A stretch of DNA of 43,525 bases, from assembly GCF_003334255.1 (NCBI RefSeq), contig NZ_QOWU01000046.1; one strand, 5' to 3'. Positions 28,504 through 28,764 of the stretch are shown here, piece after piece. Each line of letters starts with the position of its first letter. Position 1 is the first letter of the stretch. The stretch is from Escherichia coli (GTDB lineage Bacteria > Pseudomonadota > Gammaproteobacteria > Enterobacterales > Enterobacteriaceae). The position numbers were made by a program, and so were the translations under genes. The notes under the pieces were generated by a model. The model did no database searches and was not told the DNA's origin. It saw nothing but the letters and a program-made list of their open reading frames with translations.

Positions 28504-28521
28504 AGCCTACACCTGTAAGAA
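28504..28521. promoter_or_regulatory. EvgA-box-like palindrome upstream of ydeP
   Basis: AGCCTACA-CC-TGTAAGAA resembles the published EvgA consensus TTCYTACA-NN-TGTARGAA (right half exact); ydeP is a known direct EvgA target. Confidence 0.55.
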
Positions 28522-28764
28522 AATCCGCGCACAATTGAAGCCAGAGTCTTATTTTTTATATTGAAAAATATGTTAATTTAAACACTATGAGAGATGATGC
28601 TTAACTTATCGTATTTAATCTATTGTTTAACGATAATAGATTAAAAATAGAAAGAGAGTAGTCCCCTACTCTTATATATCCATGTTGGCGATAATCCCTT
28701 TGTATGTACTGTGCATCATCGCTATTACAAATCCTAATAATTCATTTCCACACAGGATAAGTAG

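Follow-up and report, generated by a model that had tools for sequence, protein, structure and literature searches.

The acid-resistance cascade that runs from EvgA through YdeO to GadE is entered at the genes ydeP and safA-ydeO, as is the link from SafA to PhoQ/PhoP, and the locus of these genes raises the question of how far the two promoters resemble each other and what a likeness outside the EvgA box might mean for activation by EvgA. The EvgS/EvgA system has been reported to be switched on by mildly acidic pH. According to secondary sources on published work, ydeP is under direct EvgA regulation and the safA-ydeO promoter region is bound directly by EvgA, and this second promoter has also been reported to be repressed by YdeO and PhoP. 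Moreover, PydeP is the standard reporter of EvgS/EvgA activity. The EvgA box was reportedly defined by Masuda and Church in 2003, and EvgA binding is said to have been studied by Kato in 2000 and by Itou in 2009. The presence of an EvgA box at ydeP and safA-ydeO is established knowledge, both promoters being among the founding members of the regulon; the present analysis concerns what surrounds the box in a stretch of Escherichia coli DNA of 43,525 nucleotides (the window).

The ydeP-safA locus and its EvgA boxes

The ydeQ-ydeP and ydeP-safA intergenic regions of the window were found to be identical at every base to those of E. coli K-12 MG1655, and the gene names ydeQ, ydeP, safA and ydeO are those annotated at the same locus of that genome (Table 1), which confirms the assignment of the two promoters to ydeP and safA-ydeO in a first-pass annotation of the window. 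The intergenic region upstream of ydeP is present in 5,328 of 5,426 complete E. coli genomes.

Table 1. Features of the ydeP and safA-ydeO promoter regions. Positions are those of the window; signed promoter positions are all counted from the inferred ydeP start at 28587.
Feature	Position	Strand	Promoter position	Identity to safA or basis
ydeQ	27517-28431	+		ORF list
Primary EvgA box, ydeP promoter: AGCCTACA-CC-TGTAAGAA	28504-28521	+	-83 to -66	
Block A, AATCCGCGCA (safA: ACTCCGCTCA)	28522-28531	+	-65 to -56	8/10 identical
Block B, TGAAGC	28536-28541	+	-51 to -46	6/6 identical
Block C, AGTCTTATTT (safA: AGTCCTATTT)	28545-28554	+	-42 to -33	9/10 identical
Promoter spacer	28555-28570	+	-32 to -17	5/16 identical, unconserved
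Extended -10, TG-t-TAATTT (safA: TG-t-TATATT)	28571-28579	+	-16 to -8	7/9 identical
Inferred ydeP transcription start	28587	+		Published leader, -178 to +10; 7-8 nt after the conserved -10
Initial transcribed region, TGAGAGATGATGCTTAACTT	28588-28607	+	+2 to +21	13/20 identical
ydeP 5' leader, about 178 nt, structured	28587-28764	+		Published leader and fold
ydeP CDS, 759 aa	28765-31044	+		ORF list and MG1655 annotation
Hairpin, 12-bp stem, between ydeP and the safA promoter	31058-31088	+		Read from sequence
Primary EvgA box, safA-ydeO promoter: TGCCTACA-GC-TGTAAGAA	31163-31180	+		Consensus match
safA blocks A (31181-31190), B (31195-31200) and C (31204-31213)	31181-31213	+		Register with ydeP
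safA extended -10, TG-t-TATATT	31230-31238	+		Register with ydeP, conservation, -10 hexamer at +53
safA	31292-31489	+		ORF list and MG1655 annotation
ydeO	31564-32325	+		ORF list and MG1655 annotation

The palindrome upstream of ydeP, which had been called EvgA-box-like, does match the EvgA-box consensus TTCYTACANNTGTARGAA (TTCYTACA-N2-TGTARGAA), with two mismatches at ydeP and one at safA, and the two 18-bp boxes are identical at 16 of 18 positions. Sites with at most three mismatches to this consensus number three in the window against 0.5 expected; the third is a weak match with three mismatches at 32105-32122 (TTCTTTTAGATGCAAGAA), which lies within the ydeO coding sequence and is probably a product of chance. 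In the ydeP promoter, the 18-bp box is the sole strong EvgA match and also the most upstream one. That the ydeP and safA promoters are both EvgA promoters is hardly open to doubt.

Extent of the similarity between the two promoters

In a register of +2659, which leads from the ydeP to the safA upstream region without gaps, positions 28504-28560 and 31163-31219 are identical at 42 of 57 sites. The near position-for-position match of a module of about 55 bp, as described in the first-pass annotation, therefore stands, but its length had been underestimated: 28504-28607 and 31163-31266 are identical at 69 of 104 positions, again without a gap, in copies that lie on one strand at a distance of 2,659 bp. 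The earlier claim that the similarity reaches well past the 18-bp palindrome is borne out by the 35 nt 3' of the box, where 24/35 positions are identical against a shuffle mean of 9.0 (sd 2.6) and none of 20,000 shuffles reached 24 (p<5e-5); the pairwise alignment that had been suggested as a check is thus gap-free and not confined to the palindrome. Further downstream, 28571-28607 is identical to its safA counterpart at 24 of 37 positions, a value likewise reached by 0 of 20,000 shuffles, while the 64 nt 5' of the box share nothing beyond chance level (14/64). In addition, an ungapped local comparison of the two intergenic regions scores 25 at best, with shuffles averaging 9.0 and never exceeding 12.5.

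Judged by this alignment, the unit shared by ydeP and safA is the entire promoter of about 105 bp, which takes in the predicted extended -10 as well as the start site with some 20 bases of the transcript. No description of this collinearity of PydeP and PsafA was found in the accessible literature, a scope outside which the primary EvgA papers lay. Further copies of the module were sought by blastn with 11-nt words and a 113-bp query in 5,426 E. coli genomes, which returned only the ydeP copy, and a search of this kind misses the safA paralogue too and is blind to further diverged copies.

Promoter anatomy and constraint in orthologues

The ydeP transcription start was placed at 28587 because a published study of the circuit gives the ydeP 5' leader as -178 to +10 from the start codon, and some 66 bp separate this start from the end of the box. 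As to the long leader proposed earlier, the box does begin 261 bp before the ydeP ATG (28765), but of this distance only about 178 nt, and not about 260 nt, would be leader. For safA, a start near 31245-31246 is predicted by homology with ydeP, which would give a leader of about 46 nt versus about 178 nt at ydeP.

Orthologues of the region were taken from six further E. coli strains and from a divergent Escherichia lineage (L006) whose YdeP is 96% identical. Block B is mostly kept among them, TAACGC (TGAAG to TAACG) being present in one natural strain (L058), and block C, which includes an element TCYkATT (-40 to -34), is invariant across all orthologues. With the inferred start site on which these positions depend, TCYkATT abuts or overlaps a weak -35, the hexamers read at that position being ATTTTT or TTTTTT in ydeP and ATTTCC or TTTCCT in safA. 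In the spacer, 7 of the 14 positions of 28557-28570 are invariant in each orthologue set. The extended -10 is kept in the two paralogues and in every orthologue; in TGn, the free base is changed from T to C in both L006 copies, with TG and the hexamer unchanged. The initial transcribed region is nearly invariant in orthologues as well. At safA, TCAGTACTGA (31188-31197) forms a 10-bp palindrome whose centre lies 21 bp from the box centre.

Conservation spans the box to about +21 in both orthologue sets, while drift is seen in the DNA 5' of the box and in the -35/-10 spacer; the L006 flanks have drifted to about 50% identity. A megablast search with the L006 intergenic region against the E. coli collection gave no match, because the intergenic DNA of this lineage is too diverged. 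Within the ydeP box itself, only the central pair of bases and the outer bases on the left vary. Among positions identical between the paralogues, 41/53 are invariant in the orthologues of both copies, compared with 16/33 of the positions that differ (Fisher p=0.009). Identity over the 113-bp module is less than 95% in 341 genomes of the E. coli collection; for the 333-bp intergenic region, the number is 1,133. We consider it rather probable that the blocks outside the box are functional promoter determinants.

Two repeats near the boxes were also noticed. A perfect 9-bp G+C-rich inverted repeat, TGCGCGGAT ... ATCCGCGCA (28474-28482 and 28523-28531), flanks the ydeP box off-centre; its upstream arm lies in a conserved island in L006 but has been shifted away there by a 12-bp insertion, and it has no counterpart at safA. 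The hairpin that follows ydeP keeps its stem in L006 (about 7290-7325 there), the conserved 12 bp being TTCTTCTGCTGT / ACAGCAGAAGAA. Its 7-nt loop reads CATCCGC in the window versus ACGGATG in L006, the latter being a 6/7 reverse complement of the former, as though recombination within the stem had flipped the loop.

Some smaller features surround the two starts. A direct repeat, TTAACG-N4-TTAACG, occupies 31250-31265 (+5 to +20) just past the predicted safA start, and copies of the motif occur in the ydeP leader as TTAACT (28601-28606) and TTAACG (28628-28633); the safA repeat could be an operator for a reported safA-ydeO repressor, or an RNA feature. The ydeP sequence at 28576-28593 and the yegR upstream sequence about 60-76 nt after its box (L003) have ATTTAAACACTA(T)GAGAG in common around their presumed starts. 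This match is shifted by 5 bp relative to the EvgA box, and its local score exceeded 200 shuffles (z=4.5), a score to be read beside the z=4.9 reached by another, probably spurious pair. As well, a leaderless mini-ORF of five codons, ATG AGA GAT GAT GCT TAA (28587-28604), starts exactly at the inferred ydeP start, and safA has CTG ... TAA in the same register. This candidate was rejected as not conserved: its stop is lost in strain L061, and for this reason it is probably not under selection.

The six EvgA-box promoters of K-12

In K-12, besides those of ydeP and safA, EvgA boxes were found 5' of emrK, frc, yfdX (which has two) and yegR. The known EvgA targets emrKY and gadE had been proposed in the first-pass annotation as places to look for further copies; a box was indeed found upstream of emrK, but the hdeD-gadE region contains none with up to three mismatches. 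When the promoters are anchored at the box, the mean identity is 24/60 for the gene-ward flanks versus 14.5/60 for the control-side flanks, and ydeP/safA is an outlier at 38/60, the other pairs reaching 19-27/60. All six promoters share one orientation, with the better half-site on the gene-proximal side. These promoters are not independent of one another, ydeP/safA and possibly frc/yfdX being paralogue pairs.

Two elements outside the box recur at a fixed distance. The dinucleotide CA, which forms the 3' end of block A, stands at +9/+10 after the box in 6/6 promoters, and TCYkATT stands at +26 to +32 in 6/6. The latter is the best 7-column window across the six promoters, with a circular-shift p=0.0006-0.007 when one promoter is taken per independent lineage (four lineages). 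Moreover, a -10-like hexamer is present at +53/54 after the box in 5/6 promoters, which is the best of all offsets and is the position of the TG-extended TAATTT of ydeP; this lends independent support to the core promoter as assigned and to a start some 66 nt past the box. Blocks A and B (TCCGCnCA and TGAAGC) occur at ydeP and safA only, the other four EvgA promoters lacking them. The further conserved determinants proposed by the first-pass annotation are real in that they are under constraint, but CA and TCYkATT belong to all six EvgA-box promoters and not to this pair alone.

A half-site weight matrix was built from the 14 primary half-sites and summed over the six promoters in 272 combinations of offset and orientation. 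Outside the box, the best half-site-like positions are left-oriented and start at +25 (rank 1 of 272) and +3 (rank 2), which puts them 42 and 20 bp, respectively, past the left half of the primary box; the first corresponds to TCYkATT in block C and the second to the CA element of block A. Both have negative log-odds and occur in the left orientation only, with no partner right halves evident, in promoters that are partly paralogous.

The frc promoter and the proximal yfdX box have an exact CTCTCTGATT at the same offset, +22 to +31 (L001, 15476-15485 and 16470-16479, minus strand), and the frc and yfdX promoters may, like those of ydeP and safA, be related neighbours. When the six promoters were aligned locally without an anchor, the method proved insensitive, the match of z=4.9 between emrK and yegS being probably spurious, and box-anchored tests were used instead. 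No description of CA and TCYkATT as common to the six EvgA promoters was found in the accessible literature, again with the primary papers outside its scope. What is added to the known box is modest: a paralogy that spans the whole promoter, and a common spacing rule with two extra elements.

The ydeP leader

The ydeP leader has a minimum free energy of -40.5 kcal/mol (z = -3.1 versus shuffles), and a consensus fold was obtained from seven orthologues. Hairpin 1 (28614-28645; arms 28617-28627 and 28632-28642) carries one compensatory change, from A-U to C-G in L056/L060, and the consensus fold also accommodates changes compatible with G-U pairing. Hairpin 2 (28654-28673; arms 28654-28661 and 28666-28673) is kept in the consensus fold. 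In the same fold, the conserved 5' end of the leader (28590-28600) pairs with an invariant island (28713-28723) to form a long-range closing helix, and AUCCU (28731-28735) pairs over the Shine-Dalgarno sequence AGGAU (28754-28758). A search of 28400-31600 on both strands against Rfam gave no match with E <= 1, and CsrA has been reported not to bind the ydeP leader.

On the minus strand, hairpin 2 (28655-28672) resembles an intrinsic terminator, with a stem followed by CTTTCTATTT. The sole L006 substitution in this hairpin is tolerated, as a G-U pair, only in the plus-strand RNA.

Origin of the promoter pair

The ydeP/safA promoter pair is most simply explained by local duplication of a promoter fragment, and it is towards this origin that we lean. 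The duplicated cassette of the first-pass annotation is favoured by the collinear, gap-free match of 69/104 in adjacent loci, but only 12 of the 29 orthologue-variable positions are identical between the paralogues, which is not clearly higher than the about 30% estimated from composition. Descent by duplication is likely, though unproven over convergence under spacing constraints.

Orthologues of ydeP outside Escherichia (Edwardsiella at 85% and Yersinia rohdei at 67% amino-acid identity, and others) have no EvgA box and are uninformative for footprinting, and those of Edwardsiella (L007, L008 and L010) and Y. rohdei (L009) lie in a different gene context. As Edwardsiella ydeP has no EvgA box, the EvgA promoter would have been assembled within Escherichia; the different context and the missing box suggest that ydeP moved horizontally and gained its EvgA promoter there.

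Interpretation and alternative explanations

Taken as a whole, our main reading, to which we give a probability of roughly 0.7, is that PydeP and PsafA, both activated by EvgA, are paralogous copies of one promoter layout of about 105 bp, by which EvgA would reach a weak -35.

The blocks 3' of the box might instead be operators for another common regulator, such as PhoP, H-NS or a NarL-family protein (e.g., RcsB or GadE), which seems unlikely, although it is the strongest of the alternatives. TCCTA-type half-sites are common among NarL-family boxes, which counts for this explanation, as do the restriction of blocks A and B to ydeP and safA and the TTAACG repeat of safA. PhoP and YdeO are, in addition, the reported repressors of the safA-ydeO promoter. 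The fixed distance of CA and TCYkATT from the box in 6/6 promoters, however, ties these elements to EvgA or to the geometry of RNA polymerase, and no good PhoP box (TGTTTA-N5-TGTTTA) could be read by eye in the sequence. A YdeO operator in the blocks was rejected: the YdeO box ATTTCA is absent from them, and neither ydeP nor safA is among the seven targets found in the published YdeO ChIP-chip study.

A somewhat weaker case can be made for the extended similarity being, for the most part, neutral sequence left over from a recent gene conversion or local duplication, with only the box and the -10 being functional. The proximity of the copies (2.66 kb, same orientation), the collinear and gap-free match over 104 bp and an identity far above that of the other EvgA promoter pairs would all be expected of such a relic. 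The shared positions, on the other hand, are preferentially invariant in orthologues, including L006 with its strongly drifted flanks, and the spacer between -35 and -10 is already randomised (5/16), while a young neutral duplicate would not decay block by block.

It is improbable, furthermore, that the core promoter is TTGAAG (28535-28540) with a 16-bp spacer to TATATT (28557-28562) and a start near 28569, which would make block B the -35 hexamer and place the box at about -57. This arrangement is the sole match to the sigma-70 consensus in the intergenic region (9/12), yet the scan gives one site versus 1.8 in shuffles, and the matching safA -10 would be TCTTTT. The TATATT hexamer lies in the least conserved segment and is altered in L006 and L061, whereas TGnTAwwTT, 17 bp downstream of it, is conserved everywhere, at an offset common to 5/6 EvgA promoters. 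A start near 28569 also conflicts with the published leader of 178 nt.

Lastly, chance resemblance in AT-rich intergenic DNA outside the box, for which it could be said that the post-box parts reach no more than z=2.5 in a free, harshly penalised local alignment and that the 11-nt-word blastn misses the paralogue, is excluded for practical purposes by the anchored shuffles (24/35, then 24/37, each 0/20,000), against just 14/64 upstream.

Proposed mechanism and comparison with known systems

Under the main reading, the layout would begin with an 18-bp inverted repeat of high affinity for EvgA, its centre near -74.5. Three blocks about one helical turn apart would follow, TCCGCnCA at about -60, TGAAGC at about -48 and AGTCyTATTT at about -38, the last ending at the poor -35, and after a free spacer the layout would close with the extended -10 TGnTAwwTT and a start at about 28587 in ydeP and about 31246 in safA. 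From the literature, phosphorylated EvgA (EvgA~P) would bind the box. By analogy with BvgA, more EvgA protomers might then fill weak, phased sites down to the -35 region, where EvgA might recruit or stabilise RNA polymerase at a promoter that would be unable to fire alone, having an extended -10 and apparently no usable -35. That the blocks are such secondary EvgA sites we would put at slightly below an even chance. A broader generalisation is offered a shade more tentatively: every EvgA-activated promoter might carry a fixed array of weak contacts on the same face, in which the primary left half-site is followed at 20 bp by a half-site ending in CA and at 42 bp by a TCYTA half-site, and which takes EvgA~P to a crippled -35 in the manner of BvgA at fha and fim3, PydeP and PsafA being a locally duplicated pair with the fullest array and the shared +2 to +21 a further common control point.

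The refined layout leaves the known biology of the locus unchanged. For the design of reporters, it may be useful that the functional promoter unit extends from -83 to about +20 and is not the 18-bp box alone; in motif-based prediction of the regulon, searches for the box only miss the spacing rule and TCYkATT. Moreover, the common promoter geometry sets up a test of whether EvgA shares the oligomerising activation mode of BvgA.

BvgA is a published homologue of EvgA. At Pfha, head-to-head BvgA dimers have been reported to lie 22 bp apart on one face of the DNA, each turn of the helix taking up one monomer; of the Pfha sites, the most upstream is the strong one, the proximal one borders on a -35 that is weak by design, and the secondary ones are hard to recognise by sequence. 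The BvgA promoters of Bordetella pertussis (Pfha, Pfim3 and Pptx) and the EvgA promoters are alike in having a strong inverted repeat furthest upstream. The weaker sites of the BvgA promoters, about two turns apart, may have as their counterparts the conserved half-site-like elements 20 and 42 bp downstream in the EvgA promoters, which end at -34, and where the last BvgA site abuts or overlaps a poor -35, TCYkATT stands beside a weak -35. Unlike the BvgA sites, the downstream sites of EvgA are putative and are upstream-oriented half-sites only. EvgA promoters also differ from BvgA promoters in having an extended -10 and in the position of the primary site, which is at -74.5 and not at -88.5 as for BvgA at Pfha. 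UhpA, of the NarL/FixJ family, has at the uhpT promoter a strong upstream site and weak downstream sites that reach to about -32 and need the phosphorylated regulator. The order of strong and then weak sites is similar to that of the EvgA promoters, while the recognition sequence is another one and PuhpT also needs CRP. Within the EvgA regulon of E. coli itself (ydeP, safA(b1500)-ydeO, emrKY, frc, yfdX and yegR), PydeP and PsafA show no difference in kind from the other members.
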